This document shows positions 295-16,366 of a stretch of DNA of 27,572 nucleotides, piece after piece. Location: positions 1 to 27,572 of the IMG/VR virus record IMGVR_UViG_2639762873_000006; one strand, written 5' to 3'. This DNA is from a virus (Duplodnaviria > Heunggongvirae > Uroviricota > Caudoviricetes). Below the pieces are notes generated by a model. That model was not told where the DNA came from. It ran no database searches and saw nothing but the letters and a program-made list of their open reading frames with translations. The position numbers were made by a program, and so were the translations under genes. How positions within the stretch are numbered: the first letter of the stretch is position 1; each line of letters begins with the position of its first letter.

Positions 295-298
295 TCAA

Positions 299-337
299 TT
301 AACACTACTAGTACCGGAAATATACTGGTAGTGTTAA
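299..337 (+). terminator. imperfect hairpin after first ORF (about 13-bp stem, one mismatch)
   Basis: TTAACACTACTAG ... CTGGTAGTGTTAA inverted repeat directly after the stop at 292-294; no clear T-run. Confidence 0.3.
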
Positions 338-615: not shown

Positions 616-833
616 ATGATCTACATGAGCTAAACGTACTCTATATAGATACAGTACGGAAACTTACCGAAGAAGATCTACTAGGTGAATTTGGTCTTAC
701 CAGTGAGATGATAAACACTTTGAAGGAGATCCCACTTGCAAATATAGTTAAACTAACCGATTGTACTCAGTTACTGTTAAAACCAAATGAGGCTGTATTA
801 TGGGAAGCATTAAAAGCATTACCGCAAAAATGA
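612..833 (+). CDS. hypothetical protein (73 aa)
   Basis: ORF with ATGA overlap to both the upstream and downstream genes. Confidence 0.5.
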   Translation: MNDLHELNVLYIDTVRKLTEEDLLGEFGLTSEMINTLKEIPLANIVKLTDCTQLLLKPNEAVLWEALKALPQK

Positions 834-1483
834 TCAGTACGATTCTGAATGATGATTTTAATGTAGGTATGTTGACTGCCGACGCAACAGGCCGCAATGC
901 ACTGGCAAACGTCAACGAAGAAGATATAGATACACTTATTCAACGCCTGGGCGAAGTGAAGGACTATGTAAGCACACTACGTACCGAGCGACTAAACGAA
1001 GCTAAGAAGCTATTAGAATCACTTGTACAAGAGTCTGGTAGCTTCTCTAGTGTAGAGGAACTGCTTTCTACACTTGCCGTATCTTCTCCTGCTTCCATAC
1101 CACAAAAAGCATCGAAGCCAAACGGTAATAAGATATTCGAAGTAGTCATAGTTGATAGCAAGAAGGACGAAAGAAGAACCTATAATGTAATCAATAAGAA
1201 GTTACCAGCGGCATTACTCAAGGATGAAGTATACATTCAGTTGGTTAAGAAGAATCCCGAACTATCGGACGTTGACGAGTTTTTACGGGCGTATAGTGAG
1301 GACTATCGCAAAAAATACCCGCTTAATGCGAAGTGGAACGGTCATGAGTTCCATCTAAACCAGAAAGGGAAGATGAACGCGAAAGCACAAGAATACTACG
1401 CCGAGTACAAGCAGCAGTATCCTAAACAGGCCGACGAGCAAGACTTTAAAGAACTTGTTACTAAAGCGTATAAGGTAGTATAA
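830..1483 (+). CDS. hypothetical protein with Lys-rich C-terminal half
   Basis: ORF 800-1483 in the track; ATG at 830 overlaps the upstream stop (ATGA), so 830 is preferred. Confidence 0.5.
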   Translation: MISTILNDDFNVGMLTADATGRNALANVNEEDIDTLIQRLGEVKDYVSTLRTERLNEAKKLLESLVQESGSFSSVEELLSTLAVSSPASIPQKASKPNGNKIFEVVIVDSKKDERRTYNVINKKLPAALLKDEVYIQLVKKNPELSDVDEFLRAYSEDYRKKYPLNAKWNGHEFHLNQKGKMNAKAQEYYAEYKQQYPKQADEQDFKELVTKAYKVV

Positions 1484-1490
1484 GAATAAC

Positions 1491-1523
1491 AATAGCTACT
1501 ACACAAATAAAGTAGTAGCTATT
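1491..1523 (+). terminator. perfect 12-bp stem hairpin (AATAGCTACTAC / GTAGTAGCTATT, 9-nt loop)
   Basis: Inverted repeat read directly from the sequence just after the stop at 1481-1483; no T-run, so it may be a processing or attenuation site rather than an intrinsic terminator. Confidence 0.45.
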
Positions 1524-1591
1524 ACTAAATATCATAGCTATAATAATTCACATCAAACATCACCTCACACAATCACTACAAGGATTTACTA

Positions 1592-1972
1592 ATGAAAAAT
1601 CTCTTTACCCTAGCTGTACTCGCTACGGCTACAATCACTACTGGCTGTACTACTATAACGCCTGCTTTTATGAATGAAGCCGTAGTAGGTGATATTAACG
1701 GTCGTACACTAGTATTATTCCCCGTAAATGGTGGTAAAGAGTATCGCCCACAATTCAGTAGTGATTGTCAGCCTATGCTATTGGGTGAAGAACGCCCATC
1801 TACTGGTAGCTGTATTATTGCCGCCGACCGACTTACAAATATTCATAGCTTCGAAGAACATAAAGCCCACGGCCCCCACAAAAACACCACTAAGATAGTT
1901 GATCGTTCAAATAATTACGGTACAGAATTTGAGTTATCGAAACCAACTAATTATATAGACGATAATCTGTGA
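1592..1972 (+). CDS. putative lipoprotein (126 aa)
   Basis: N-terminus MKNLFTLAVLATATITTGC: basic residue, hydrophobic core, lipobox-like TTGC with Cys at about position 19; RBS AAGGA 8 nt upstream. Confidence 0.6.
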   Translation: MKNLFTLAVLATATITTGCTTITPAFMNEAVVGDINGRTLVLFPVNGGKEYRPQFSSDCQPMLLGEERPSTGSCIIAADRLTNIHSFEEHKAHGPHKNTTKIVDRSNNYGTEFELSKPTNYIDDNL

Positions 1973-2151
1973 TGAAGAAAACAATATTTGCCGTACTTTT
2001 AGTTATGGGGACTGCATATTACTATGATATAATAAAATACATTAACCCTACTTATTAAATTGCAGTCGCCGTAATCAAAAACACTGTCATTATCTGGCAT
2101 CAACAATGCCATTGATTCTGATAAAGTAGATAATCCCGAATGGATGAATTT

Positions 2152-2532
2152 ATGAAAAAGATTGTACTGTCTGCATTACTGTTAGTAGCCCCTTCGGTAC
2201 TGGCAGTAAATGTAATACTCCCTGATGATGGTTTATATCGTTGCGGTGTTGAATCGTGGGAACAGGTAGGAAAGCGAGTAGTAAAGACTGGTTATTATGG
2301 TATGACTGGTTATGTGAGTATTGATAACCGTGCTGTTAGTGTGAAGTTTAGGGATATGAATATTTCATTCAGCCCTGTTTCAAAACTTAAAAGCGGTCGC
2401 CTGATGGCCTATGCCGTAGATACTGACCAGTACGATATTATTATTAGTGCAATCAATGGTAAAACACAGTATATGGTCAGCAATGAGAATAATCCCGTAT
2501 TTTTGAACTTCTCCAATTGTATTATTGAATAA
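2152..2532 (+). CDS. secreted protein, paralog A (signal peptide MKKIVLSALLLVAPSVLA)
   Basis: Start at MKK chosen by alignment to paralog B; shared GLY(R/Q)C motif and C-terminal (F)(S/Q)NC(I/V) motif. Confidence 0.6.
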   Translation: MKKIVLSALLLVAPSVLAVNVILPDDGLYRCGVESWEQVGKRVVKTGYYGMTGYVSIDNRAVSVKFRDMNISFSPVSKLKSGRLMAYAVDTDQYDIIISAINGKTQYMVSNENNPVFLNFSNCIIE

Positions 2533-2541
2533 GGAATAGAA

Positions 2542-2928
2542 ATGAAAAAGGTTATCGTATCTGCATTACTGTTAGTAGCTCCTTCGGTACTGGCTAACAC
2601 TCACTCTCTACCAGAGCAGGGATTGTATCAATGTGATGTGAAAGTAGTTGAAATGCTGGGTGATACTCCAGTAGAAAAATCTTCTTATTCTGGTGCAGGT
2701 CACGCTAAAGTTAATAGTGATGGTTTTATCCTTAACTTCGGTGCAATGACTCACGCCACCGGACCAATAGAATCTAATGATTCAATGACAATGGCTTATG
2801 ATAATGATAAGCAGCGATACTTCCTTGCAACAATGGGAAGTAAAGAGCAAAACGATATTACTTTTATCTTCTTATTGAGATCTGATACTCGTAATTACTA
2901 CTTTCAAAACTGCGTTAAAATAAAATAA
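2542..2928 (+). CDS. secreted protein, paralog B (signal peptide MKKVIVSALLLVAPSVLA)
   Basis: RBS AAGGAA upstream; signal peptide nearly identical to paralog A at nucleotide level; mature part diverged. Confidence 0.65.
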   Translation: MKKVIVSALLLVAPSVLANTHSLPEQGLYQCDVKVVEMLGDTPVEKSSYSGAGHAKVNSDGFILNFGAMTHATGPIESNDSMTMAYDNDKQRYFLATMGSKEQNDITFIFLLRSDTRNYYFQNCVKIK

Positions 2929-2937
2929 GGGATATAT

Positions 2938-3147
2938 ATGTCAGAGAAACTAATTAAAGCAATCCGTAATATCACGGAATATAATATGAGTATTGAGCGT
3001 ATCATTGTTAGTACCGAAGACCAGCAACACTATTATAGTATTAATCCTTATAAGGAAACTGTAATAAAGGTAGCAGACCAATACGGCAAACCAATTGAAG
3101 GGGAAGTAGAAATACCACAAATACCGCCATTATTCGATACTAACTAA
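2938..3147 (+). CDS. hypothetical protein (69 aa)
   Basis: ORF with RBS AAGGGA; followed by an intrinsic terminator. Confidence 0.5.
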   Translation: MSEKLIKAIRNITEYNMSIERIIVSTEDQQHYYSINPYKETVIKVADQYGKPIEGEVEIPQIPPLFDTN

Positions 3148-3153
3148 TAATAT

Positions 3154-3180
3154 AGCCCACTAATAAAAGTGGGCTTTTTA
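3154..3180 (+). terminator. rho-independent terminator (AGCCCACT / AGTGGGCT stem, then TTTT)
   Basis: 8-bp perfect stem, 6-nt loop, T-run, directly after the stop at 3145-3147. Confidence 0.7.
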
Positions 3181-3198
3181 ATCTAATAAGGAAAGTAA

Positions 3199-3672
3199 AT
3201 GAAAATTATAAAAAACATTCCTTCACTTCCAGATGTAGAAGTGACACTAAGTAGCCGTACTAATGAAATTGTATTAGTACACAATACTAAAACTGGTCAT
3301 ACAGTAGTAGAGAATAATGATTCATGGTATGAGGGAAACACCGATAAAAAATCACATTGGGGTGATCATATCGATGATGCAGCAGCTTTTCATAGCTTCG
3401 CACAGAATCGCTGTACTAATCCCACTACTAAACCAGATCAAATTAGTGATTTAGCATTAGGTACGTTTTGCTTTCATAATGTATTAGAAGAAGATCTTGT
3501 ATTTGAAAACACTGATTACCATGCTGCAAGGTTATCCGGTATAGGTCGTGTAGTACCCACTGATTATAATAGTGTGACGGTATATGATCCAAATAATAAC
3601 CCACCAACCACTATTACAGGCGATGCAGCAGAAATTATAGTTCGCCTTCTATCAATGACAGTAACCAACTAA
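3199..3672 (+). CDS. hypothetical protein (157 aa)
   Basis: ORF with RBS AAGGAAA; no recognisable motif. Confidence 0.55.
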   Translation: MKIIKNIPSLPDVEVTLSSRTNEIVLVHNTKTGHTVVENNDSWYEGNTDKKSHWGDHIDDAAAFHSFAQNRCTNPTTKPDQISDLALGTFCFHNVLEEDLVFENTDYHAARLSGIGRVVPTDYNSVTVYDPNNNPPTTITGDAAEIIVRLLSMTVTN

Positions 3673-3678
3673 TAATCT

Positions 3679-3700
3679 AGCCCACTACTCACAGTGGGCT
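3679..3700 (+). repeat. second copy of the AGCCCACT / AGTGGGCT hairpin (different loop, no T-run)
   Basis: Same 8-bp stem as at 3154-3175 with conserved flanks (TAATAAT.TAG upstream, AATCTAA..AGGAAA downstream). Confidence 0.5.
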
Positions 3701-3725
3701 ATTCAATCTAACGAGGAAAAATATA

Positions 3726-4382
3726 ATGACAGGTAAAGAACTATTTGAAGAATTTATTATGCACGATCACCGCAAAGGACTTACATGTACTATTGATATT
3801 CGTCCTTCCAGTAAGCCGGGATTCGAACTAATCGGGGTAGGTCATTTCAATTTAGGTAAAGGTTATCGTTTCTATCTCAGCGAAGACTGCGTAGAAATCC
3901 GTGATAATCTATCCCGCTTACGTCATGAACATCGTAAAATAGTATCAGAACGGTTAGACGATCCAATAGAGGCACTAGATTCAATTATCTATTCTTCTCT
4001 ATATGGTGATTATCATGGCTGTACTAATCGTTATTTTGGCGGTGTATTAGTTCACTACGCATTAGAACTAAAATCAAAGATAACCGTAACTATATCTACT
4101 GATGAAAACTTATTGTTCAAAGATCTACCGCCAGATGTACAGGAAGAAATGAAGTATGATGTATATCTAAAAGATCGCAAACGTGTAGTAGCTTATGACT
4201 CATTACAATATAGTGATAATAAAGAATTTATCCTACAACACTATAAACCATGTGCCCCACATCCAAATCGTGTAGTATTCACAGATGGAACGGCAGAACA
4301 GCTACAAGATCAATCACCAGTACATATACCTGGCTATACTGAATACGTAACTAGCTATACTGGTAAACGCCACTTCAAGTAA
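3726..4382 (+). CDS. hypothetical protein (218 aa)
   Basis: ORF with RBS GAGGAAAA; no recognisable motif. Confidence 0.6.
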   Translation: MTGKELFEEFIMHDHRKGLTCTIDIRPSSKPGFELIGVGHFNLGKGYRFYLSEDCVEIRDNLSRLRHEHRKIVSERLDDPIEALDSIIYSSLYGDYHGCTNRYFGGVLVHYALELKSKITVTISTDENLLFKDLPPDVQEEMKYDVYLKDRKRVVAYDSLQYSDNKEFILQHYKPCAPHPNRVVFTDGTAEQLQDQSPVHIPGYTEYVTSYTGKRHFK

Positions 4383-4395
4383 TCCCATCCCCTAA

Positions 4396-4422
4396 ATACT
4401 CCTATACATGCTATAGGAGTAT
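4396..4422 (+). promoter_or_regulatory. perfect 11-bp stem hairpin whose 3' arm contains the GGAG Shine-Dalgarno of the next gene
   Basis: ATACTCCTATA catgc TATAGGAGTAT; GGAG at 4416-4419 lies in the right arm, 9 nt before the ATG at 4429. Confidence 0.4.
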
Positions 4423-4428
4423 CACACC

Positions 4429-4815
4429 ATGAATACAATCTACCTACACTTCCCTGATGGAACGTATAAGGCCATAGAAAGCACCACAGGCCGACAGGAA
4501 TCAGGATACATACCATCACGCAAGGATAAGCTAATAACCGCTCATATCATCACACAGGACGGTTACGAGCTATTCATAGATACCTATACACTAACGCTTA
4601 AGTATAAATACATTACATTAAACTACTCACGCTTCACCATAGGCCGTACTAATTACCCTATCAATGCACTAGATACATTCAGCGGTAGTGAGCTACCACA
4701 CTTAACCCGACTAAGGGAACTACGCGACGAGATCTTACAGTACCGTACCGTAGATGGTCTGCCTATCTCTTATCGTTGTGATGTAATCGTTAGTAATATG
4801 GTGATACTCAAGTAG
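4429..4815 (+). CDS. hypothetical protein (128 aa)
   Basis: ORF; its RBS is embedded in the upstream hairpin. Confidence 0.55.
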   Translation: MNTIYLHFPDGTYKAIESTTGRQESGYIPSRKDKLITAHIITQDGYELFIDTYTLTLKYKYITLNYSRFTIGRTNYPINALDTFSGSELPHLTRLRELRDEILQYRTVDGLPISYRCDVIVSNMVILK

Positions 4816-4991
4816 ATTGCATAGACAATGCATAAACAGTGAATAATAGAATGATGGTATACTTCGGTACTGATAGGTGAAACATATCAACATTATGTGC
4901 AATTTGTGCGATTTTATCGAAAAATGATGAAATAAATCAAAATAAAGGTTGACAGTCCAAAATTATCATAGGTTCTCCCAAAAATGGCAAA

Positions 4992-5013
4992 GAGGGCGAG
5001 TTTTCGCCGCGAG
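4992..5013. other. GC-rich island in an AT-rich non-coding region; candidate cos/terminase recognition element
   Basis: GAGGGCGAGTTTTCGCCGCGAG is the only GC-rich stretch in the 4816-5132 intergenic region, about 120 bp upstream of the terminase small subunit; contains a GGCGA/TCGCC hairpin and elements like those I recall from lambda cos (GGGCG, GTTTTCGC). Confidence 0.25.
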
Positions 5014-5132
5014 TTATAATAAAAATACGTGAGAAATTTTACATAAAACAAACAAATATATAGATAAAACCTATTAGTACCGAAATAGATAGAAAATACC
5101 AATCAATGGAAAATGAATAGGAATTGCATAAA

Positions 5133-5702
5133 ATGGCAAAAAATAAAGACGATGGAACCCGCTATTCCTGGCAAGAAATCGCCGACCGATTCGGCGTAGA
5201 ACATTCCACAGTATCGCGTATCTGGTCGGGGAAAGGATTAGATATTAGCTGGCCTAAGAAATTAGTAGACGACTGGTTACTAGCGAACGTAATCGAACCA
5301 ATGCGTAATGGTGATGTGAAGGGAATGATCCATAAAGCCACACTACGCAAACTAGAAGCAGAAGCAGACCTAAAAGAATTAGAACTACGACAGCAATCTG
5401 GTGAACTAATTCCGGTAGCAGTAGTACAGCAAACATTATCACAATATTTCTATCAACTACGTCAGGTACTAAGAAGTATACCGGCAGCAAGTTACGTAGA
5501 ACTATTTGAATCACAGGACGCTTTAGAATTAAAAATTAAATTACAGGACAAGATAGACCGCCAGCTAGAGGAAATAGGCGGCTATGAATATGAGGGAACA
5601 TATGAAGAACAACTACCAGAAGATGATGAAGATCCTAACGAGGGCGGCGAAGTCGATCCTACCTCCGAAGAAACAACTACCCGCAGAGTGGGTAGAGAGT
5701 AA
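5133..5702 (+). CDS. terminase small subunit (HTH DNA-binding, acidic C-terminus)
   Basis: Immediately upstream of the large terminase; helix-turn-helix-like SWQEIADRFGVEHSTVSRIW near the N-terminus; track start 5124 is TTG, so the first ATG at 5133 (RBS AGGAA) is preferred. Confidence 0.6.
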   Translation: MAKNKDDGTRYSWQEIADRFGVEHSTVSRIWSGKGLDISWPKKLVDDWLLANVIEPMRNGDVKGMIHKATLRKLEAEADLKELELRQQSGELIPVAVVQQTLSQYFYQLRQVLRSIPAASYVELFESQDALELKIKLQDKIDRQLEEIGGYEYEGTYEEQLPEDDEDPNEGGEVDPTSEETTTRRVGRE

Positions 5703-7497
5703 CCTAGTCTTCCCCGATGGCGAACTACAAGGGCAACGCGTCAAATTATTTGCCTTTCAACATAAGCCCATCAACGATATAGTTAATCCACGTGTACGTA
5801 AAGTGGTACTAATGAGTAGTGCTCAACTTCTCAAGACAACGGTACTACAGAATAGTATGTACTACTTCCTCGCCAATGATCCTAGTAACATGATATTTGG
5901 CGGTGCTACTGGTGGTACTACTAGTAAATTTAGGACTGGTAAATGGCAAGCAGTCATCGAAGCATGTTCGGTACTGAAAAATCTCGTTAGTAATAAGAAC
6001 GACAAGAACTATACGAACAATGACAAGACACAACAAAATTTAGATGGTACGTTTACCTACTTCCTGTCATTGGGTAGTAGTGCTTCACTACGTGGTCTAA
6101 CGGCCCCTCGCGTATTTTTGGATGAGATATCCAATGTCAACGCCGACGGCGAAGAAGGCAATCCCTTGAAGCTGGCAGAACAGAGAACGAAAGCATTCAG
6201 TAACCCCCTTATTATGTGCTGTTCTACTCCACTTGATGAACATGACCTGATTACCCAACAGTACGAACAAAGTAATAAACAAAAGTTTTATGTACCTTGC
6301 CCTCACTGTAACCACTCACACGAAATGGTATTTGAAAATGTTAAATTCGAATGGAAGATTATTGAAGGCGGTCGCCGTCGTATTCCTGATGCAGACACTG
6401 CAAGGCTAGAATGTCCTAAGTGTAATAATGTAATAACAGAAGCAGAACGTGTACGAATGATCCGTAGGGGTGAATGGATAGTAACAGCACCAGAAGTAAC
6501 CGATATAATGGGCTATCACATATCTAGACTCTATTCCCCTATCAACTCGATCAAATCGATTGTAGCAGACTTTGCCGAAGCACATTATACCTTTGACCTT
6601 GCATCATTCTATAACAACGTCTTAGGACTACCATATATTGATAAAGAGAATACCGACCATGATTTAGTATTATTGGAGAACCTAAGAGATAGTGAAATAG
6701 ATATTAATAATATACCCGACGATGTACTAGGGGTGGTATACGGCGTCGATCAGCAGCTCGACAGGTTGGAGGTAACTACACTAGGAGTAAGTGAGAAGAA
6801 TCTCTATGTTTTAGATCATCGCAGTATATACGCAATTGACTGTACTAAAATCGAAGCCCCAGCATGGAATAAACTAACGGCCTTTGCCAATGCACCATTG
6901 AAAACACATTCGGGTAAACCACTTAAAGTATTAGCCGGATTCGTCGATAGTAGTAATGGCAACGCAACCAGTACCGTATATCGTTATTGCAGTAACTCTA
7001 CTATCTTTAAACCTATTAAGGGTGGTACGTCTAACTCAAACCCACTATTCAAAGGTAGTACCGCTGGTGGTCACTCCCTGATTAACCTTAATGTAAACTT
7101 AGGTAAAACGAACGTTAGACAATTACTAAACCGTGCTGTATCCGATAGTGAAAATAGTAAGGAAGTACAAATACATTTCAGCCATTCATTACCAGATGAT
7201 TACTTTATTCAGATTACATCCGAGAAACGAGTGATAAAGGCTGGTGCCTGGGTATGGGTGAAAAAGGTTAGTAGTGCGAGGAATGAAACTCTCGATTGTC
7301 TTAATTACTCGCTTATATGTTTCCAGTGGTATCTATCTAAATTGGGTAGTCAACCATTCCGACAACTAAGGGAATATAACGCGAAACAAAAAGAGAAAGC
7401 AGGACTAAATAAAGAAGTAAATACAGAAGAAGCACCAACTAAGCCAACTCCAAAACGAGTAATAAGGCCGCGTAAAGGTGGTGGATTCTTTAAATAA
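5584..7497 (+). CDS. terminase large subunit, lambda gpA-like family
   Basis: 637 aa, close to lambda gpA length; N-terminal LPAEWVESN...FP motif resembles the gpA N-terminus; zinc-ribbon-like CPHC ... CPKC; C-terminal ETLDC motif. The 5' end overlaps the small subunit by about 119 nt; alternative start ATG 5602 has a GAGGGA RBS. Confidence 0.85.
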   Translation: MNMREHMKNNYQKMMKILTRAAKSILPPKKQLPAEWVESNLVFPDGELQGQRVKLFAFQHKPINDIVNPRVRKVVLMSSAQLLKTTVLQNSMYYFLANDPSNMIFGGATGGTTSKFRTGKWQAVIEACSVLKNLVSNKNDKNYTNNDKTQQNLDGTFTYFLSLGSSASLRGLTAPRVFLDEISNVNADGEEGNPLKLAEQRTKAFSNPLIMCCSTPLDEHDLITQQYEQSNKQKFYVPCPHCNHSHEMVFENVKFEWKIIEGGRRRIPDADTARLECPKCNNVITEAERVRMIRRGEWIVTAPEVTDIMGYHISRLYSPINSIKSIVADFAEAHYTFDLASFYNNVLGLPYIDKENTDHDLVLLENLRDSEIDINNIPDDVLGVVYGVDQQLDRLEVTTLGVSEKNLYVLDHRSIYAIDCTKIEAPAWNKLTAFANAPLKTHSGKPLKVLAGFVDSSNGNATSTVYRYCSNSTIFKPIKGGTSNSNPLFKGSTAGGHSLINLNVNLGKTNVRQLLNRAVSDSENSKEVQIHFSHSLPDDYFIQITSEKRVIKAGAWVWVKKVSSARNETLDCLNYSLICFQWYLSKLGSQPFRQLREYNAKQKEKAGLNKEVNTEEAPTKPTPKRVIRPRKGGGFFK

Positions 7498-7507
7498 GGA
7501 AAATAAA

Positions 7508-7999
7508 ATGGCAATAGTTCGCAAAGTAACTTTAAAAGGCGATATCTTTAAAGGCGAGACTATTACATTCGATTACCCCGCAGGGTCAGAAGTAGACTTG
7601 ATTGATCCAAACGGGGTAAAGACCTCATATACATATCCCTTCCCAGATATTGATACTAGTAACTGGGTAGCGGGTGTATGGACTGCAATTATTAACAGTA
7701 CCGTAGCATATGGTGTACAACAATTCGAAGTAATAGATCCAACTTCTAAAGCGTCAGAATATAACGACCTGATGCAAATCATCAAAGATATTGACCAGAT
7801 CATCATGGATAGAATTAAGGGCGGTGGTGTATTAAGTCAATCAATTCAAAATAAATCATTAACATATGAAAGTAGTGAAATACTTATGAAACTACGCCCT
7901 GTATATGTCAGTCGTGCAAATGATTTACTTTCGGATATGAAAGGATTCAATACTGGATGTCCTATCAAATCAATTACTACATTTAGGAGATCTCGCTAA
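7508..7999 (+). CDS. hypothetical protein between terminase and portal (163 aa)
   Basis: ORF with RBS AAGGAAA; occupies the position of lambda W but is larger and shows no similarity I can recognise. Confidence 0.5.
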   Translation: MAIVRKVTLKGDIFKGETITFDYPAGSEVDLIDPNGVKTSYTYPFPDIDTSNWVAGVWTAIINSTVAYGVQQFEVIDPTSKASEYNDLMQIIKDIDQIIMDRIKGGGVLSQSIQNKSLTYESSEILMKLRPVYVSRANDLLSDMKGFNTGCPIKSITTFRRSR

Positions 8000-9495
8000 T
8001 GTTCGGATGGAATAAAAAGAAAGTAGAAGAACCAAAACAAAAAGTATTAGTACAGAAGCCAGTGAAGCTAATGAAGAATAACCCGATGAAACGTGCAATG
8101 ACTTCCCTTAATTTGGGATCATCTAGCCCTGTTATCTCATTTGGCTTCACTGGCGGTAATCAGGCTGGCAATATTAACGCCATCATTAACCGTAATCTAC
8201 CTGTTATGGTTGCAGTAAGTCGTGAACTCTCAATTAAGAACGGTATTGTAAAGAAATATGTCAGTACGAATAGTGCGGGTGTAACGGGTGCAGATGGCCT
8301 ATATATTCGTCCTTGTACCCATAGCTCCGACGACGAACAAGTTAACCAGTCAATCGATAAACAGATTGAAGATGCATTCTATGCATGGGCCGAAGATCCT
8401 AAAGCGTTTTCCCGCTGCGGTACTCTAGATATCAGTACCTTCCAACGTCTGGTAGAACGTACTCGATCAGTAGATGGTGATTGTTTCATTCGCGTTCACA
8501 GTAAGCCAGGAGAGCTACCACAGATTGAGATTATCGATTCTATGCGTATCTCGACCTATGAGAACCAATTACTACCGTCGGGAAACTTTATCAGCAATGG
8601 TATTGAATTTGATATCAATACAAACCGTCCTGTAGCGTACTGGGTAACACGTTATAACCCCATCATGTACAACTATATGATTGGTGAGCGTGAGCGAGTA
8701 CCAGCAGACGAGATCCTACACCTATTCCAGCAGGACTACCCAACACAGCAACGCGGTATTCCAGATGTGCATTCCGGTACTGAAAAGTTAAAAGAGTTAG
8801 AGGAATTTATGGCGGCGGCAATTACTTCCCGTAAGGTTGCAGCGTCCGCAATGGCCTTTATCACTAATCCAGATAGTGACGATGTACAGCTACTGACTGA
8901 TGACAGTGTATCATACTATGATCAGGACTATCTAAATCCGGCTGCAATCGTAGAACTACAGGCAGGTCAGGATATTAAAACAGTAAACCCATCTCAGACT
9001 ACCGACGGTATTCAGGAGTTTATTGATAACCAAATGATGATGATTGCAATGGGATTAGATATTACAAAACAATCTCTAACTTCTGATACTAGTAATGCTT
9101 CATTCAGTGCTGCAAAGTTAACTGATAAATTACAGCAATCAACATTTAAAAGCCGTACTAATGCTTTAATTGTATCTGTACTAAAACCTCTTTATATTGC
9201 ATGGTTAAAATCTGCAATGCTAAATAGTAGTACATTAAGCAATTTAAATTTTAGTGATTTTAATAAATTGACTCATGCACAATATGTACAGACGCGTCAA
9301 ATCTCCCTAGATCCATATAAAGACCTTCAAACCGAAGTATTGGCAATTGATAACGGTTTAAAGAGTAAGGCAATGGTAATTTCGGAGATGGGATACGATC
9401 CGGTTATTGTCATGGAAGAAATCAACAAGGAAAATAAAGAAAATGGAATTGAACAAGAACCAGACGAGGGCGATCAATCTAACACAAATCAATAA
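7999..9495 (+). CDS. portal protein
   Basis: 498-aa ORF immediately after the terminase module, strong AGGAG RBS, acidic C-terminal tail; assignment is by position and size, not by a recognised motif. Confidence 0.65.
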   Translation: MFGWNKKKVEEPKQKVLVQKPVKLMKNNPMKRAMTSLNLGSSSPVISFGFTGGNQAGNINAIINRNLPVMVAVSRELSIKNGIVKKYVSTNSAGVTGADGLYIRPCTHSSDDEQVNQSIDKQIEDAFYAWAEDPKAFSRCGTLDISTFQRLVERTRSVDGDCFIRVHSKPGELPQIEIIDSMRISTYENQLLPSGNFISNGIEFDINTNRPVAYWVTRYNPIMYNYMIGERERVPADEILHLFQQDYPTQQRGIPDVHSGTEKLKELEEFMAAAITSRKVAASAMAFITNPDSDDVQLLTDDSVSYYDQDYLNPAAIVELQAGQDIKTVNPSQTTDGIQEFIDNQMMMIAMGLDITKQSLTSDTSNASFSAAKLTDKLQQSTFKSRTNALIVSVLKPLYIAWLKSAMLNSSTLSNLNFSDFNKLTHAQYVQTRQISLDPYKDLQTEVLAIDNGLKSKAMVISEMGYDPVIVMEEINKENKENGIEQEPDEGDQSNTNQ

Positions 9496-11305
9496 TGCAA
9501 TTGATGAAACTGATAGAACCGTAGAACTCTCTTTTGCCTCCGAAATTCCAGTAGTACGCGATATTAAAGGGACTCTCTACAATGAGATCCTTTTATGTAG
9601 TCCAGAAAACGTAGATTTAAGCCGTCTAAATGACGGTGCACCTGTACTAGTAGAACATGATGCAATGCGTCAAGTTGGTATAGTTGAAAATGCTCGCGTA
9701 GATATGGATAAGGTATGTCGTGCTACTGTACGTTTTAGTGCACTAGGAACCGCAAATACTATCTTCGGTATGATCGTAGAAGGTATTCGCCCTAAAGTAT
9801 CCGTAGGTTATAACATTCTAGATTACTACCTAGACGGTAATGATCTAATCGTTTCAAAATGGCAACCCTACGAAGTATCTAGCGTATCCACTCCGGGAGA
9901 TAATAGCGTAGGTGTGGGAAGATCACTAAATAGTAATGATGAAATTACTTTAGAGGATCAACCCCAAATGGAACCAGAACAAAAAGAAGAACTAGTACCG
10001 GAAGTAGAAATTATTGAAGAAGCACCAGTAGAAGAAGTGCAACCAGAAGTAATTGAAGAATCCGTAGTAGTCGAAAGTGAAGAATCAGTAGAAGTAGTAG
10101 AAGAACCCGAAGTGATCGAGGAAGTACAAGAAGAAGTACAACCGGAATTAGTAGAAGAACGTTCTATTGCAGTAACTGATATTCAAGAAAGTATAAATAA
10201 AGAAGTAGAAGCAAATCGTATTCGCGAACTTCAATCTATCTCTTCGGTACTAGGTGTTAGTACAGAAGAAGCAATTAAAAACGGTGTAAGCGTAGAAGAC
10301 TTTAAACGCTCACTAAATACAGATAATAAATCAATTGATAAGGATATCAAAAAAATGGAAAAGAAATCTCTAATTAACGAAGGTCTACGCAGTCTAAAAG
10401 GTGAAGCACACGATCTAGAAACTTTCGAAAAAGGTGCTCGCGGTTATAATGCAGACCTAAACGCAATGGTACGTAGCACCGCTGATACCACTTCTACCGT
10501 AACTGCGGCAGGTCTAGTAAAAGAAGAACTATCCGACGCGTATATTCGCCAACTACTAGCACAAACCGTACTAGGTCAACTACCAGTGACTGTATTTGGT
10601 GGCCTTGCTGGTCGTGGCAACTTCTCTATCCCGCGTGCTAAAGGTATGAACCCAGCAGCTAAATTCTATAACGAAGATGAAGCAGTAACCGACGGCTTCG
10701 AAACCTTTGATAAGATCACTCTAAAGCCTCGCATGTTCGCAGCAGGTATCAAGATCACTAAAGCAATGCTACTAAGCAACGCAGCAACCGAACGTTATGT
10801 TACCGACGAGCTACTACGCCAATGTTCTAACGGTCTAGAATCAGCAGTATTTGCACAAATCGCTACTACCGTTCCAGTACAACAAACCGCAGTATCTGGT
10901 CAAGTATCCGAAGCAGACGTACAGAAAGCTATCGAAGTTATCTCCGCTAAAAACGTAGATATCAATCGTTGTGTAGCTATCGTGCATCCTTCTATGCTTG
11001 CAAAACTACGTCAAACCGCAGTATTGAATAACACCGCAGCCGTAGCAATGGTAGCAGGTCATCGTTATGACATGTGGTTGAATGACGAAGTACGTGTAAT
11101 TGAATCTACTTTCGTAGCAGCAGATACCATTCTAATCGGTGATTTCTCTGAGCTAATCTTTGCTAACTGGAATGAAGGCCAAGAACTAGATTTTGATGAT
11201 ACTACCTACCGTGCAGCACAAACTATTGCAATTCGTAGTTTCCAATACCTAGATGTAGCTATCGCACACGAAGAAGCATTTGTACAACTACAACTAAAAC
11301 CATAA
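9443..11305 (+). CDS. prohead protease (HK97/S78-type) - acidic linker - major capsid protein (HK97 fold) fusion
   Basis: N-terminal about 170 aa carry protease-like motifs (GAPVLVEHD, SVGYNILDY, EVSSVSTPGD); Glu/Val-rich repeat linker; C-terminal about 300 aa look like an HK97-family capsid protein. Track start 9407 is TTG; ATG 9443 with an AAGGAAA RBS is preferred. Confidence 0.8.
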   Translation: MELNKNQTRAINLTQINNAIDETDRTVELSFASEIPVVRDIKGTLYNEILLCSPENVDLSRLNDGAPVLVEHDAMRQVGIVENARVDMDKVCRATVRFSALGTANTIFGMIVEGIRPKVSVGYNILDYYLDGNDLIVSKWQPYEVSSVSTPGDNSVGVGRSLNSNDEITLEDQPQMEPEQKEELVPEVEIIEEAPVEEVQPEVIEESVVVESEESVEVVEEPEVIEEVQEEVQPELVEERSIAVTDIQESINKEVEANRIRELQSISSVLGVSTEEAIKNGVSVEDFKRSLNTDNKSIDKDIKKMEKKSLINEGLRSLKGEAHDLETFEKGARGYNADLNAMVRSTADTTSTVTAAGLVKEELSDAYIRQLLAQTVLGQLPVTVFGGLAGRGNFSIPRAKGMNPAAKFYNEDEAVTDGFETFDKITLKPRMFAAGIKITKAMLLSNAATERYVTDELLRQCSNGLESAVFAQIATTVPVQQTAVSGQVSEADVQKAIEVISAKNVDINRCVAIVHPSMLAKLRQTAVLNNTAAVAMVAGHRYDMWLNDEVRVIESTFVAADTILIGDFSELIFANWNEGQELDFDDTTYRAAQTIAIRSFQYLDVAIAHEEAFVQLQLKP

Positions 11306-11318
11306 GGATATAACCACT

Positions 11319-11639
11319 ATGAGGCATTTTACTAGCAATCAAATTGATTCTACTTTCTTAAATGCCTTTGGTGAACCTATCACAATTAACGGGGCGAGTT
11401 TTACGGCAATCGTAGATCATCGCCCCGTTGTCGTTGATTCTAGCACTGAAGGACTAGTAGAAAGTACAGAATCATTCTTATCAGTAAAGACTGATGACCT
11501 ATCTACTTACAATATCGCTATTGATTCAGTGGTAGGCGTACAGGGTACTACATACACTGTATATAATATCTATAATGATTTGAGTGGTATTAGTGAAGTA
11601 TTCATTAGACCGTCAGCAATTAATAATTACGGGTGGTAA
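11319..11639 (+). CDS. head-tail attachment protein (lambda FII-like)
   Basis: 106 aa, directly after the capsid gene; pattern ITINGASFTAIVDHRP ... SFLSVKTDDL ... GTTYTVYNIYND resembles lambda FII as I recall it. Confidence 0.45.
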   Translation: MRHFTSNQIDSTFLNAFGEPITINGASFTAIVDHRPVVVDSSTEGLVESTESFLSVKTDDLSTYNIAIDSVVGVQGTTYTVYNIYNDLSGISEVFIRPSAINNYGW

Positions 11640-11640
11640 T

Positions 11641-12033
11641 ATGAATCTTCTAACTCAAGTACAGAAAACATTAAGAGACAGTTTAAATAATATCATCCCA
11701 ATTCGCAAAGCAATGAATATTGCAGCAGGTCGTGATCTCTTTATTCTCGTTTCAACCAATCAAACCTACCAATCAGTAAACTATAATAATCAAAATCAAA
11801 TGGGTAATTTTACCTTTCAATTCCTATTAGTACCAGAACCTTCAATTACATTACCCGCTGATACCTTCGGTACTATTTTTGATTACTTCCGTACTAATAC
11901 GATCATGGAATTTGGTAATAATGGCGTACAACTCCATAGCTATGACGTAGCTGACAGTGAACTAGTAACTGATCCGTCAACTGGTTATCAATCGCTATCT
12001 TTTGCAATAAATATTGTAGCAACTTTAAAATAA
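11641..12033 (+). CDS. putative tail terminator/neck protein (U-like by position)
   Basis: 130 aa starting at ATG 11641 (overlaps the upstream stop); sits where a tail terminator is expected; similarity to lambda U is weak. Confidence 0.35.
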   Translation: MNLLTQVQKTLRDSLNNIIPIRKAMNIAAGRDLFILVSTNQTYQSVNYNNQNQMGNFTFQFLLVPEPSITLPADTFGTIFDYFRTNTIMEFGNNGVQLHSYDVADSELVTDPSTGYQSLSFAINIVATLK

Positions 12034-12046
12034 AAGGAATTAAAAG

Positions 12047-15000
12047 ATGGCAGATCAAATTTTTACAGGGAGTGGTTTTAAATTATTTTATAATGACGAT
12101 ACCGCAAACCGTATCCCCGATAACGCAGGGAACGAGCTAGTAAATGAATTGGCGGCTATGCCTTCATTCGGTATTGATAGCCAAGTACAAACTATTGAAG
12201 TATATAACAGTGAATTTTCAGAGAAACTACTCGCAGAACAGAACGTAAACGATATTGATATTGTTGTTAACTACGTACCAGATTGCACCGCTCACGCATT
12301 TTTAGATCAAGCGACCGAAGATCAGACCGAGTTCCAGCTAACACTACAGTACGCCGTAACTGATGGTATCATCTCCTACAGTATGGTGAATGGTATGATT
12401 AGTTCCGCTCGCCTTGCTGGTGATAAAGACTCAGTAGTTACTAAATCATATACCTTTACCCCTACCGACGTTCTAGTACGTGATGGACAGGCACCATTGA
12501 GTACCGGACTAGTTGTAGGATCATATGGCGTAGGTAGTAACGGCGTAGACGTACCACAGTACGAACCACAGTTACCAAATGGCAACAGTTTTATCAAAGT
12601 ACCAGCAGCACGCAATGATAACCCAGCTAGTGCGGATCTAATGGGTATTGGTCTTATCGATTCCGGTACATTCTCCAGTATTGCAATGACTAAATCCGGT
12701 ACATTGGCAATCTATGCAAAGAACCAGAATACAGCATGGACGCGTATACTTACTGCAACTCAGATTAGTGATCAGTATGTACCACTTACGCGTAAGGTTA
12801 ATGGTAAAGCACTAAATGCAGATATTACTATTACTAAAGTAGATGTAGGACTAGGTAACGTAACTAATGATGCACAATTGAAAATAGCTAGTAACCTTTC
12901 TGATTTAAATAACGTCAACACAGCCCGTACTAACTTAAAAGTAGCTCGTTTTGAAGAAACTAGACCAGACCTAAGTACAATTTATTCTACTGATGATAAG
13001 TCTGGATATAAAGTAGTAGTACGTAGTGATGGCTATTGGGGTGCAATGAATGCAGACGGCACAGTCACTAAAGGTCTATCGATTGACATGGGCGGTACTG
13101 GTGCAAATACATTAGCACAAGCTCAAGCTAATCTAGGTATTGTAACTAGTGCGGCACAGGATGGAAAATATCTAGCTAAGGCAAGTAACCTTTCTGATTT
13201 ACCAAGTAAACCAACAGCCCGTACTAACTTAGGATTAGGTACAGCAGCTACATATAATGTAAGTAGTTCCGGTGCAAACGTTCCATTAATGAGTAGTGCA
13301 AATACGTGGACTGGAATACAATATTTTGGCAATGCACAATTTACATCTACCTATGTTAACCCGTTATTGATTCATAGTCCTACACCTACAATCTATTTGA
13401 AAGATACAGATACAAACGGCTTAGGGATGAAATTAATTGCAGATGGTAGTGTATTCCGTATGCAAGATGATACCTCCGCTGAAACGTGGGCTTTTTCTTA
13501 TAATTACAGTACGAAAGTAGTTACAATGCCATCCTTGCAACTTGCAACTAAACTACAAGTAGCAGAAGGCGGTACGGGTGCAACAAATTGGAAACAGGCA
13601 GCATATAACCTTAACGTTATGCCATATAACCGCAATAGTTTAACTGCAAGTGATAATCTCAATAATTTTGGTGGTCTTAATGCTGGTGTATATTTTTGTG
13701 CTTCAAGTGCTTATGCAACCCCTGCAAATAACTACCCAGAAGCTAACGCAGGTACAGTAATAGTTTATCAGAACGCCGCAAATAGTAGTGATGGTTGTAC
13801 ACAATTTTACTATCCATTCAATACTAACAAAGCATATAAACGTATTCTAAGATTTACCAGTCCAACTACTTCTACGTGGTCATCATGGGCAGAGATCCTA
13901 ACCTCCGAACATATTACCCCCGGTAATATCCCTCGTTTAAATGGTGGTAATACGTGGAATGGTAACCAATCTATTGATACTGGTTATCTAACACTAGGTT
14001 TAAAAAATACCAATGCAACCGCATTTGAAATTGGTAGCCAAACTACAAAAAACTCAGCTTATATTGACTTCCATACAAGCGGTTTAACTAATGACTATGA
14101 TACACGTATTATTGCAGAAACTACTACATCCACTGCAAATGGACAAGGTAAATTATCCTTCGTTGGTGGTGAGTTTAACTTTAATAATAATATTACAGGT
14201 CAGGGAAATATTACGGCTAATGCCTTTATCTCTAAAACTGTAGTTAGTGCAACTGGTGCTATCACTGGTGCAAGCCTCAATACTGGATCTGGTGCTATCA
14301 CTGGTGGTGCAATTAGCGGTACTACATTGACTACAACAGGAGCGGCGAAAGTAGGTAGTATTGATTCTACTGGTGGTCTATATGGGACTGGTGTAGTACA
14401 GGCAGATTCAGCCACTACTGGTACTTATATTAGAATGGGTAATGGTACAACTGATAACTATATCACAAGTAACAACTTCCCAGCAGGCGGTACACAACGC
14501 TATCTACAGTTCAAGAATGACGGTACTGTTAGAATCTCCGACCAGTTGATTATGCACAATAACTTAGATGCAAGTGGTAGCGACTTCCAAGTTACGGCTA
14601 ATAACTTCCGTATAGTAACTGGTGGTAATGGTCTACAGATCAAAAACAATTCAGGATCTGTATCATCTTATCTATCTGGCATTGGGTCTACTAACGTTCG
14701 CGAATGGTACATAGGTAAAGGTGGATCAGGTAAAGGGATTGCATGGTGGAACGATATGTCAGGCGGTCACGGTGTTGATTTAGGGGCAGATGGTAACATC
14801 ACATTAAATACCCTTGCCAGTACCGGAAACGTTAACATACGCGGTACTATGTCAACTACTGGTAGATTATCCGTAACAGGTGATGTAACAGCTTCCGGTA
14901 TAGTTAGAGCTAATACTACTTTTTCAGTTAATGGTACTAGTGGAACTTCTAACGCCCACCTATGGTACTACGGTCACACTGGAGCAAGTCGCGGCGTAAT

Positions 15001-15481
15001 CTATGCGGGAAGTGGCGGTACTATTAACTTCCGACCGGATCGTAATGATGCTGGGGGAGCTAATGGATACTCCGCAGCACTAGATTATACTGGTAAATTT
15101 ACTTGTATGTCGTTATCTCAAACATCCGACCAACGAGCTAAATATGATGCCGCTGATATTAGTGATTCACTAGGTAAGGTACTACAGCTAACTGGTAAGA
15201 CTTATAAAATGAAAGTTACACCAGAAGTAGAAGTAGATGGCGTGGGATTCTTTGCTCAGGAAGTAGAAAAATTCTTCCCAGAAGCTGTATCATCCGTTGG
15301 TAGTGCATATACTCAAGAAGGCGAAGAAATCGAAAACCCACTAGGTCTAGATTATCAGGCTATTTCTGTACTATATGCTGGGGCTATTAAAGAGCTAAAT
15401 GCTAAAGTAGAAGACCAACAATTACAACTCGATGAACTACGTGCTGTAGTAACTCAATTACTAATCGCACAGAATAAATAA
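12047..15481 (+). CDS. tail-tube-domain / tail-fibre fusion protein with C-terminal S74-type intramolecular chaperone domain
   Basis: Residues 1-150 align along their length with the 152-aa tube protein (15538-15996), roughly one-third identical by eye; two phage tail-fibre repeats (NLSDL...ARTNL); Gly/Thr/Ser/Asn-rich fibrous middle; C-terminal SDQRAKYD ... GFFAQEVEKFFPEAV ... coiled coil matches the S74 autoproteolytic chaperone pattern. Confidence 0.75.
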   Translation: MADQIFTGSGFKLFYNDDTANRIPDNAGNELVNELAAMPSFGIDSQVQTIEVYNSEFSEKLLAEQNVNDIDIVVNYVPDCTAHAFLDQATEDQTEFQLTLQYAVTDGIISYSMVNGMISSARLAGDKDSVVTKSYTFTPTDVLVRDGQAPLSTGLVVGSYGVGSNGVDVPQYEPQLPNGNSFIKVPAARNDNPASADLMGIGLIDSGTFSSIAMTKSGTLAIYAKNQNTAWTRILTATQISDQYVPLTRKVNGKALNADITITKVDVGLGNVTNDAQLKIASNLSDLNNVNTARTNLKVARFEETRPDLSTIYSTDDKSGYKVVVRSDGYWGAMNADGTVTKGLSIDMGGTGANTLAQAQANLGIVTSAAQDGKYLAKASNLSDLPSKPTARTNLGLGTAATYNVSSSGANVPLMSSANTWTGIQYFGNAQFTSTYVNPLLIHSPTPTIYLKDTDTNGLGMKLIADGSVFRMQDDTSAETWAFSYNYSTKVVTMPSLQLATKLQVAEGGTGATNWKQAAYNLNVMPYNRNSLTASDNLNNFGGLNAGVYFCASSAYATPANNYPEANAGTVIVYQNAANSSDGCTQFYYPFNTNKAYKRILRFTSPTTSTWSSWAEILTSEHITPGNIPRLNGGNTWNGNQSIDTGYLTLGLKNTNATAFEIGSQTTKNSAYIDFHTSGLTNDYDTRIIAETTTSTANGQGKLSFVGGEFNFNNNITGQGNITANAFISKTVVSATGAITGASLNTGSGAITGGAISGTTLTTTGAAKVGSIDSTGGLYGTGVVQADSATTGTYIRMGNGTTDNYITSNNFPAGGTQRYLQFKNDGTVRISDQLIMHNNLDASGSDFQVTANNFRIVTGGNGLQIKNNSGSVSSYLSGIGSTNVREWYIGKGGSGKGIAWWNDMSGGHGVDLGADGNITLNTLASTGNVNIRGTMSTTGRLSVTGDVTASGIVRANTTFSVNGTSGTSNAHLWYYGHTGASRGVIYAGSGGTINFRPDRNDAGGANGYSAALDYTGKFTCMSLSQTSDQRAKYDAADISDSLGKVLQLTGKTYKMKVTPEVEVDGVGFFAQEVEKFFPEAVSSVGSAYTQEGEEIENPLGLDYQAISVLYAGAIKELNAKVEDQQLQLDELRAVVTQLLIAQNK
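12890..12937 (+). repeat. tail-fibre repeat unit, copy 1 (48 nt)
   Basis: AGTAACCTTTCTGATTTA + 12 nt + ACAGCCCGTACTAACTTA; both 18-nt blocks identical to copy 2. Confidence 0.8.
13184..13231 (+). repeat. tail-fibre repeat unit, copy 2 (48 nt)
   Basis: Same two 18-nt blocks as copy 1 with a different 12-nt spacer; encodes SNLSDL....ARTNL. Confidence 0.8.
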
Positions 15482-15488
15482 ATAAACG

Positions 15489-15510
15489 GTAGGGAAAAGG
15501 CTTTCCCTAC
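15489..15510 (+). promoter_or_regulatory. perfect 9-bp stem hairpin between the fibre-fusion gene and the tube gene
   Basis: GTAGGGAAA aggc TTTCCCTAC, 8 nt after the stop at 15479-15481; no T-run. Confidence 0.45.
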
Positions 15511-15537
15511 TAATCCAACTTATATAAGGAAATAAAA

Positions 15538-15996
15538 ATGGCTTTTTCAATTATGACTGGTGCTAACCTAAAGGTAGAGTTAGGCACTTATACAGCAGGT
15601 AGTGATACCCCAGCAATCGATTTTAAAGAGATTCCAGAAGTGGCAACCTTTGCTACTAGTGGTTTTGAATCTACTGTAATTGACGTAGTTACTTACAACA
15701 GTAGTTTTAACCGTAAGCTACTAGGTACTAAATCCATCCCAGATATCGAACTAACTGTAAACTACCTAGCAGACAACGCAGTACACCAACAGTTAGAAAA
15801 ACTTGCAGACGATCAAGTACGTACTCAGGTTAAAATCACCTACTACGAAAACGCAACCCGTACTACTGGCTTCTTTGTAATCTATAATGCTTTCGTATCT
15901 GCTAACTTGATTGCAGGTAGTAAAGATGAAGTAGTAACTAAGGCATTCACCCTAGCGGTAGATGGCGGTCCTCTTTCTTCTGGCGTTAACCCATAA
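15538..15996 (+). CDS. major tail (tube) protein
   Basis: 152 aa, strong RBS, directly upstream of the chaperone pair and tape measure gene; followed by a strong intrinsic terminator. Confidence 0.7.
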   Translation: MAFSIMTGANLKVELGTYTAGSDTPAIDFKEIPEVATFATSGFESTVIDVVTYNSSFNRKLLGTKSIPDIELTVNYLADNAVHQQLEKLADDQVRTQVKITYYENATRTTGFFVIYNAFVSANLIAGSKDEVVTKAFTLAVDGGPLSSGVNP

Positions 15997-16008
15997 TCAC
16001 AATAAATA

Positions 16009-16042
16009 AGAGTGATGGAGTAATCCACACTCTTTTTTTTTA
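16009..16042 (+). terminator. rho-independent terminator after the tube gene
   Basis: AGAGTG(a)TGG agtaat CCACACTCT stem followed by a 9-T run. Confidence 0.75.
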
Positions 16043-16063
16043 TTTTACACAGGAATTATAAAC

Positions 16064-16366
16064 ATGAATCTACAAAACATTCTAAAAAAACTATCTCCAA
16101 AGAAACACGCTTTCGAAATCGAAGGTGAAACTATCTATATTCATCGTGCACGTTCAAAGGATATCGAAGCTCTAAACACTCCACTAAAAGCAGTAGTAGT
16201 ATGTACTTGTGATGAAAATGGTGATCCAATTTTCAGTACCGAAGATATCGAAGGACGTATTAACCTCAATGCGTTAGATTCCGAACACGTATCAAAAATC
16301 TATCTCGCTATCATCGAACTCTATAAAGATCCCGAAGATATTCAGGACGAAATCGAAAAAAAATAA
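16064..16366 (+). CDS. tail assembly chaperone (G-like)
   Basis: 100 aa between the tube and tape measure genes; ends ...EIEKK* with an A8 run immediately before the stop. Confidence 0.75.
   Translation: MNLQNILKKLSPKKHAFEIEGETIYIHRARSKDIEALNTPLKAVVVCTCDENGDPIFSTEDIEGRINLNALDSEHVSKIYLAIIELYKDPEDIQDEIEKK

Follow-up and report, generated by a model that had tools for sequence, protein, structure and literature searches.

What is a tube protein doing at the base of a tail fiber? The question is raised by a 27,572-nucleotide stretch of DNA from a virus of the Caudoviricetes (IMG/VR virus record IMGVR_UViG_2639762873_000006, positions 1 to 27,572), referred to here as the window. An open reading frame (ORF) at positions 12047-15481 (+ strand) encodes a protein of 1144 amino acids, here called the fusion, whose N-terminal domain resembles a tail tube protein and whose remainder resembles a tail fiber. 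The tube protein itself (152 residues) is encoded at 15538-15996 on the same strand, after a gap of 56 nucleotides (nt). The explanation that we favor, with a probability of about 0.6, is that the fusion is the lateral tail fiber of a temperate lambda-like Escherichia coli siphophage and is anchored in the tube wall through a diverged copy of the tube protein. The coding sequence is divided as follows:

12047..12496, + strand: tube-like domain (fusion residues 1-150), a paralog of the tube protein; 33% identity, phrog_158, AlphaFold2 (AF2) and Foldseek, ratio of nonsynonymous to synonymous substitution rates (dN/dS) 0.24
12497..12781, + strand: conserved domain 2 (residues about 151-245, about 95 residues); conserved in the family, including a distant subfamily; dN/dS 0.21
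12782..15127, + strand: fiber shaft and receptor-binding region of the mature fusion (residues 246-1027); tail-fiber PHROGs, tblastn matches, repeats
15128..15481, + strand: C-terminal S74 intramolecular chaperone (residues 1028-1144 and stop); PF13884, SDQRAK motif, predicted cut after Ser1027

A tube protein paralog at the N-terminus

A first-pass annotation of the window had aligned the first 150 residues of the fusion with the tube protein, and BLASTP places this similarity above chance. Residues 1-168 share 52 of 159 positions with the 152-residue protein (33% identity, 51% positives, E 1e-21) in an alignment that runs collinearly from Met1 to the tube-protein C-terminus and takes in both of the stretches singled out by that annotation. 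The two proteins also match the same family of major tail proteins, phrog_158, the fusion over profile positions 12-157 (E 5e-18) and the tube protein over positions 13-158 (E 1e-18). The Pfam family PF08813 (Phage_tail_3) recognizes the tube protein (31.1 bits, cut-off 24.2) and is not reported for the fused domain at E <= 0.01. An N-terminal arm, a hairpin segment (ETYNSEF..KLL), and a GDKD.VVTK strand are common to fused domains and tube proteins.

The predicted fold agrees with the alignment. In an AF2 model of residues 1-260, residues 1-150 are confident, with a predicted local distance difference test (pLDDT) score mostly of 80-90; the low-confidence exception is residues 47-60, which align with the long hairpin of the tube protein. 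The same hairpin is disordered in unassembled tube proteins such as lambda gpV. When residues 1-150 are compared with the PDB by Foldseek, the top matches are the siphophage tubes of YDC107, lambda (gpV), 80alpha, NF5, and Sf11 (E 3e-6 to 5e-5), below which rank Hcp of the type VI secretion system and the tubes of contractile systems. Among the predicted viral structures of BFVD, the domain again matches major tail proteins. Residues 1-150 are thereby confirmed, by sequence and by modeled fold, as a true tube paralog, and the fold check proposed in the first-pass annotation is passed. The slot of the major subunit, directly before the G/T chaperone genes, is held by the 152-residue protein, and the fusion gene lies one gene upstream.

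A tail fiber with a predicted self-cleaving chaperone

The remainder of the protein is, as had been proposed, a tail fiber with a C-terminal S74 chaperone. Peptidase_S74 (PF13884) matches residues 1027-1081 with 43.2 bits against a Pfam cut-off of 22, and the SDQRAK motif begins at Ser1027 (context LSQTS/DQRAKYD, with the slash at the predicted cut), which we take to be the cleavage and nucleophile site of the family. S74 fibers trimerize starting from the C-terminal chaperone, which then cleaves itself and leaves; by analogy, the chaperone of the fusion probably cuts itself off after Ser1027.

The fiber part, about 780 residues long, resembles the T5 lateral tail fiber protein pb1. It matches the tail-fiber PHROGs 6578, 5481, 1980, and 2282 and contains (A/S)RTNL and GGTGA fiber repeats. 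Homologs of this region were sought by tblastn and PHROGs comparison, in which residues from about 280 to about 1139 resemble fibers of T5-like phages, Dhillonvirus, and Seuratvirus (the Greed fiber included) at 27-33% identity. Domain 2 follows the pattern GSYGVGSNG..PQY..GNSFIKVP..MGIGL..AMTKSG.LAIYAKN..TAWTRI, and a profile search with it against PDB sequences returned matches to fiber repeats only.

The exact protein is deposited as WP_038994369.1 (E. coli) under the name "pyocin knob domain-containing S74 family peptidase". Close variants carry the name "tail fiber domain-containing protein", and the neighbor is called "phage tail tube protein". The current names of the fusion overlook its tube domain.

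Conservation and evolution of the fusion

The fusion is neither a local artifact nor two accidentally joined ORFs, both of which are rejected by its conservation across many genomes. Residues 1-300, used in a word-indexed search, recover homologs from E. coli, Salmonella, Serratia, and metagenomes that are 39-62% identical. Among 1.84 billion representatives, a profile search detects about 90 clusters (at 50% identity) that share the tube-like domain and the next 95 or so residues, aligned from residue 1, in proteins of 600-1560 amino acids. A more distant subfamily likewise keeps both domains. Among the best 150 representatives, domain 2 always accompanies the tube-like domain except in proteins cut at the N-terminus, and the two domains are therefore taken as one conserved unit. 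The C-terminal ends of the relatives vary and include S74, Phage_tail_C_2, gp53-like_C, a T4 gp36-like segment, and a Caudo_TAP-assisted end, beside which a separate lambda-type tail-fiber assembly protein is encoded next.

The same division is seen between two E. coli prophages, in which the N-terminal 245 residues are 79-83% identical and the fiber only 37%. In this pair, dN/dS is 0.24 for the tube-like domain, 0.21 for domain 2, and 0.14 for the tube gene; the tube-like domain and domain 2 are under purifying selection. A conserved N-terminus with an exchangeable C-terminus is typically the sequence signature of a virion-anchored receptor-binding protein.

Gene order is conserved as well. 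The succession of joining protein, protein of about 130 residues, fusion, tube protein of about 151 residues, two chaperones, and tape measure protein recurs in seven loci, namely prophages of Pseudocitrobacter, Phytobacter (two), Enterobacter, and Pantoea, a 58-kb metagenome contig, and a Serratia contig. An E. coli prophage likewise shows the order terminator, fusion, tube, chaperones, and tape measure. Contig ends interrupt four further loci ahead of the tube or the fusion gene. Contigs from Citrobacter and from a further E. coli stop just past or inside the fusion gene, and a Cedecea contig begins inside it, with tube and tail genes present downstream.

Fused domains group apart from tube proteins, with a mean identity of 45% among fusions, 63.5% among tube proteins, and 27% between the two. 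Compared across genomes, the identity of a fusion to the tube protein of its own genome shows no excess, by which gene conversion and recent duplication are rejected. The duplication is therefore old, older than the spread of the lineage, and both copies have been retained.

The age of the duplication bears on the first alternative to a dedicated anchor, that the fusion co-polymerizes randomly with the tube protein and sets fibers along the whole tail. This would parallel SPP1 gp17.1* and the lactococcal MTP-TpeX, with a separate paralogous gene in place of a frameshift. Because the N-terminal arm, the hairpin, and the C-terminal strand are all kept, stacking on both faces would be possible; the fusion and tube genes share an operon and similar AAGGA ribosome-binding sites; and phages of the 936 type bear host-binding extensions on a fraction of their tube subunits (PMC6669499). 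However, an old duplication with a mean identity of 27% fits a specialized interface better than free mixing, and a trimeric fiber needs three adjacent subunits, which single chains inserted at random would fail to provide. The known extensions are, moreover, monomeric immunoglobulin (Ig) or carbohydrate-binding module (CBM) domains and not trimeric S74 fibers. Random co-polymerization is thus considered unlikely.

A second alternative keeps the tube-like domain outside the tube wall, where it would dock on the tube exterior, on the ring of the distal tail protein (Dit), or on the G/GT chaperones, or would persist as a remnant. The faster evolution of the fused domain than of the tube protein is consistent with such a role, and if no ring is formed the mismatch between a six-fold tube and a three-fold fiber vanishes. 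Yet the full-length tube fold is kept, including the segments that are ordered only on assembly, and the domain is under purifying selection (dN/dS 0.24). It is also retained in about 90 diverged clusters, whereas a docking peptide would need no whole fold. A purely external role is very improbable.

Two relatives carry a fusion gene that is cut by a single in-frame stop, after which the frame stays open into a downstream ORF bearing the S74 domain. One stop is a TGA (positions 2535-2537 of locus L001, also in L002 and L003; three metagenome samples), at which a 96%-identical Phytobacter copy (L007) has valine. The other is a TAA in Serratia marcescens (positions 4053-4055 of L004), where the next ATG follows after 48 open codons. 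These could be nonsense mutations in decaying prophages or could mark a fiber made of two proteins. Programmed readthrough is unsupported, as the stop codons differ (TGA, TAA) and the 96%-identical relative has a sense codon.

Neighboring genes and the identity of the fusion

The window covers the late genes of a lambda-like siphophage, all of them on the + strand apart from a lysozyme gene. It starts with a gpA-type large terminase, a lambda-type portal, a 632-residue capsid protein, a gpFII-like joining protein, and a 130-residue protein. The fusion is followed by the tube protein, two chaperone ORFs, a 732-residue tape measure protein, a Dit-like protein, two small tip proteins, and an 1100-residue J-like protein, beyond which lie small ORFs, the opposite-strand lysozyme gene, and a GIY-YIG nuclease gene. 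The features around the fusion gene are these:

11319..11639, + strand: head-tail joining protein, gpFII-like; PF05354 Phage_attach at 28.8 bits (cut-off 26), phrog_82 head closure Hc1
11641..12033, + strand: tail terminator with gpU-like fold, 130 residues; AF2 pLDDT 88, Foldseek terminator matches
15489..15510, + strand: 9-bp stem-loop in the 56-nt spacer between fusion and tube genes; structure scan
15538..15996, + strand: major tail tube protein, 152 residues; PF08813, phrog_158, NCBI name, chaperone and tape-measure genes next
16064-16366 and 16432-16746, + strand: two tail assembly chaperone ORFs, G/T-like; the first by phrog_344, the second by position only
16748..18946, + strand: tape measure protein, 732 residues; position and size, synteny kept in all loci
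19014..19568, + strand: distal tail protein, Dit-like, a second tube-related ring; phrog_1302, E 8e-16
20595..23897, + strand: J-like central tip protein; FN3 and Phage_Tail_Tip (PF09327, PF00041), phrog_31 central tail fiber J

The position of the fusion gene suggests a tail terminator, a candidate that is rejected because the 130-residue protein encoded upstream has the terminator fold. The top Foldseek matches of that protein in the PDB are the E217 gateway protein, A-1(L) gp7, lambda gpU, T5 p142, and the Chi neck; no sequence-level family was found for it in Pfam, PHROGs, or PDB sequences. The fused domain, by the same method, matches tube proteins and not terminators. Nor is the fusion a Dit: the Dit-like gene of the phage is a different one, placed after the tape measure gene, whereas the fusion gene precedes the tube gene. 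It is likewise not a frameshift-extended tube protein: it has a gene of its own, complete with start and ribosome-binding site, is 33% identical to the tube protein, and falls in a separate clade. Given the separate terminator-fold and Dit-like genes, the fusion is therefore a third tube-like protein, one that stands beside the tube and Dit and replaces no terminator. The fusion and tube genes have similar AAGGA ribosome-binding sites and lie in one operon.

The first-pass annotation had suggested fibers anchored on the tube or at the neck ring. Anchoring on the tube is kept as the best interpretation; the fusion is not itself the terminator or neck ring, since the 130-residue protein is the one with the terminator fold. 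A related possibility is that the fusion forms the last tube-like ring directly below the terminator and bears collar- or whisker-like fibers near the head. Its gene sits between those of the terminator and the tube, its fiber of about 780 residues probably falls short of the length of a tail governed by a 732-residue tape measure, and host-binding structures at the neck have precedents such as the lactococcal neck passage structure (PMC6669499). Against a neck position, the divergence of the tube-like domain tracks the tail module above the connectors (15 pairs, a weak signal), and the only side fiber of a phage would help less in positioning the tip if it sat at a distance from it. A fiber at the neck is accordingly rated as improbable.

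No fiber gene follows the J-like gene in the window, as the annotation had also remarked, and none is found elsewhere in a whole related E. coli prophage. The fusion gene is the sole side-fiber gene of the phage. No tail ORF of the window is named a collar by Pfam or PHROGs, and no dedicated search was made with the p132 or LtfC sequence.

Several further features of the window were noted. The stem-loop at 15489-15510 is perfect over 9 bp (GTAGGGAAA/TTTCCCTAC); the scan labels it terminator-like on the minus strand, and no T-run stands behind it on the + strand. It might set the ratio of fusion to tube transcripts or stabilize the messenger RNA. The terminator gene probably starts at ATG 11641 rather than at the listed GTG 11584, because the alignment of relatives and the NCBI call of 130 residues agree; the GTG start overlaps the previous gene by 56 nt, and the ATG lies two bases past the end of the previous ORF (11639). 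NCBIfam gave no match for any of eight proteins tried. The capsid gene (9407-11305) encodes 632 residues with a long N-terminal extension and an HK97-type capsid domain at residues 369-629 only. Because relatives carry Peptidase_S78 and Phage_capsid in a single ORF, the capsid gene seems to combine protease, scaffold, and capsid protein. Only the lysozyme gene (25453-25905, - strand) lies clearly on the minus strand of the window, and beside it is a gene for a SegE-like GIY-YIG endonuclease (25895-26383, + strand), with an 11-base overlap at the starts.

Proposed assembly and position in the tail

If the fusion is a tube-anchored lateral fiber, three chains would trimerize from the C-terminal S74 chaperone, which would cut itself off after Ser1027 and leave a mature fiber whose base bears the three tube-like domains as tethered units. 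The growing tail would then take these up as genuine subunits of the tube wall, the simplest interpretation because the whole tube fold is kept, including the segments ordered on assembly. Two trimers would most simply give the six subunits of one hexameric ring. With the C-termini of the tube-like domains pointing outward, as in lambda gpV, the fibers would project sideways. The fiber would make the first, reversible contact with the host, and the J-like tip would bind the final receptor.

The place of such a ring along the tail can be graded only tentatively. A ring next to the tip is the position we lean toward, short of an even chance; a scatter of fusion subunits along the tube is doubtful; a ring under the terminator is unlikely; and any other placement is less likely again. 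Mirror-tree correlations of the divergence of the tube-like domain are higher with the tail module (chaperone r 0.84, gpL-like 0.85, Dit 0.76) than with the connectors (terminator r 0.64, FII-like 0.56). With six genomes and 15 pairs, this weak leaning toward the tail module is too slight to place the ring.

A more specific version of the tube-wall arrangement, which is rather doubtful, makes the fiber itself part of the DNA conduit, with two pre-formed trimers closing one hexameric tube ring in a 2x3 solution to the symmetry problem. If true, host binding could act directly on the tube wall and position the tail or pass a signal without an adaptor or collar, an attachment principle not known from any solved phage structure.

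Several points weigh against anchoring in the tube wall. Incorporation into the wall is deduced from homology to tube proteins. AF2 leaves residues 153-260, and with them the geometry of the junction, unmodeled (pLDDT about 40, nine sequences). The fused domain diverges faster than the tube protein (45% versus 63.5% mean identity) and may have lost some tube contacts. To seat a trimeric fiber on a ring of six-fold symmetry, a 2x3 arrangement or mixed rings would be needed, for which we know of no solved precedent. Some copies of the fusion gene sit in decaying prophages, as judged from the in-frame stops in two relatives and from the E. coli relative L015, in which the tape-measure and J-like genes are each split in two and the copy looks degraded. 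Finally, no isolated phage of the lineage was found among the phage records.

Distribution and hosts

The related E. coli copy, L015 (NZ_CM151386.1, positions 3363-36586), is a prophage of about 33 kb in yegD, and its insertion adjoins a serine-type recombinase gene (a 532-residue "recombinase family protein"). Most genes in its left arm of about 10 kb are hypothetical, and none there is annotated as a repressor or replication gene. A close relative is carried by only two of 5,426 complete E. coli genomes, and the P0003 gene region has no match among complete E. coli genomes. The G+C content of the lineage (the window and L006-L012) is 37-40%; that of the hosts E. coli, Citrobacter, Enterobacter, Phytobacter, and Pantoea is about 50-55%.

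Among 50,697 phage records, neither the region (by DNA search) nor the N-terminal 260 residues of the fusion (by tblastn) has a match, and the closest match of the portal is about 30% identical. A query with the distant subfamily matched one phage record, Escherichia phage DCP80, in which the genes concerned are all annotated as hypothetical. This record (PQ671644.1, L013) is filed as Straboviridae/Gaprivervirus (T4-like). Its positions 1-18557 hold a siphophage-type module with a terminase, portal- and capsid-sized ORFs, a distant tube-fiber member, a second large ORF, a 164-residue ORF of tube size, and an ORF of tape-measure size; only the terminase carries an annotation other than hypothetical. 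The record is possibly a chimeric assembly.

Comparison with known tail attachments

The first-pass annotation knew of no described example of this architecture. The 50,697 phage records hold no close relative, and open-access papers and preprints yielded no separate tube paralog that covalently bears a full trimeric fiber. This novelty is tempered because host-binding extensions on tube proteins are already known, including the Ig-like domain of lambda gpV, SPP1 gp17.1*, and the lactococcal 936-group major tail protein MTP-TpeX (PMC6669499). In these, as in the fusion, an N-terminal domain of tube fold bears an outward adhesion module; SPP1 and the 936 phages extend only some of their tube subunits. 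The extensions of these systems are monomeric Ig or CBM domains, carried on the major tube protein or on a frameshift product with an identical N-terminus. In contrast, the fusion is a separate ancient paralog (27-33% identity) with a fiber of about 780 residues and an S74 chaperone, and is predicted to form a trimer.

The fiber and S74 region is similar to T5-like lateral tail fibers, represented by T5 pb1 and by LtfA-LtfB of phage DT57C, with 29-33% identity over residues from about 453 to about 1139. The role is likely shared, namely a reversible first contact beside a receptor-binding protein at the central tip, and the two fusion relatives with a gene in two parts recall LtfA/LtfB. The anchors differ. 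In T5-like phages, a dodecameric LtfC collar encircles the tube and receives the threaded N-termini of nine LtfA chains (PMC10713586), whereas the fusion has a covalent tube-fold anchor and no collar is evident by Pfam or PHROGs, with no search aimed at p132 or LtfC. The receptor-recognition devices in all available structures attach, according to the DT57C authors, by joint-like interfaces of globular domains (PMC10713586).

Tube-related hexameric rings that serve as platforms for trimeric receptor-binding proteins, as proposed here for the fusion, are known among Dit proteins, such as that of Sf11 and the evolved Dits. The Sf11 gp17 Dit ring holds six tailspike trimers (6 subunits to 18 chains), with one helix per Dit subunit binding a whole separate trimer non-covalently (PMC12724387). 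Unlike Sf11, the fusion provides each fiber chain with its own tube-like domain (1:1), its gene precedes the tube gene instead of following the tape measure gene, and the phage encodes a Dit-like protein separately.

Tube-domain fusions also occur in contractile systems, in the baseplate centerpiece of phage Milano and the "Ripcord" of R-pyocins (PMC10811340). In both, an N-terminal tube domain continues the tube and a C-terminal domain does another job, as suggested for the fusion. Hcp proteins with C-terminal toxin domains are a further example of a tube-domain fusion. In Milano, Ripcord, and Hcp, the C-terminal domains either hold baseplate wedges together or are toxins; no receptor-binding fiber is among them, and none of these fusions comes from a siphophage tube.

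Significance for tail-fiber attachment

The way in which a receptor-binding protein is fixed to the virion governs how it can be exchanged, whether naturally or by phage engineering. Siphophages are known to rely on docking to Dit or the baseplate, on threading into a collar (T5, DT57C), or on small adhesin domains on the tube protein. The architecture described here is a widespread, uncharacterized variant of tail-fiber attachment, whose mechanism beyond the identity of its domains we infer: in about 90 diverged clusters from prophages of Enterobacterales and from metagenomes, a dedicated tube paralog is the covalent anchor for a full-length, exchangeable fiber. If the domain sits in the tube wall, it would represent a new way around the mismatch between trimer and hexamer, a transferable "tube-anchor" module with which siphophages or F-type tailocins could be retargeted, and a natural test case for events at side fibers that are relayed through the tube.

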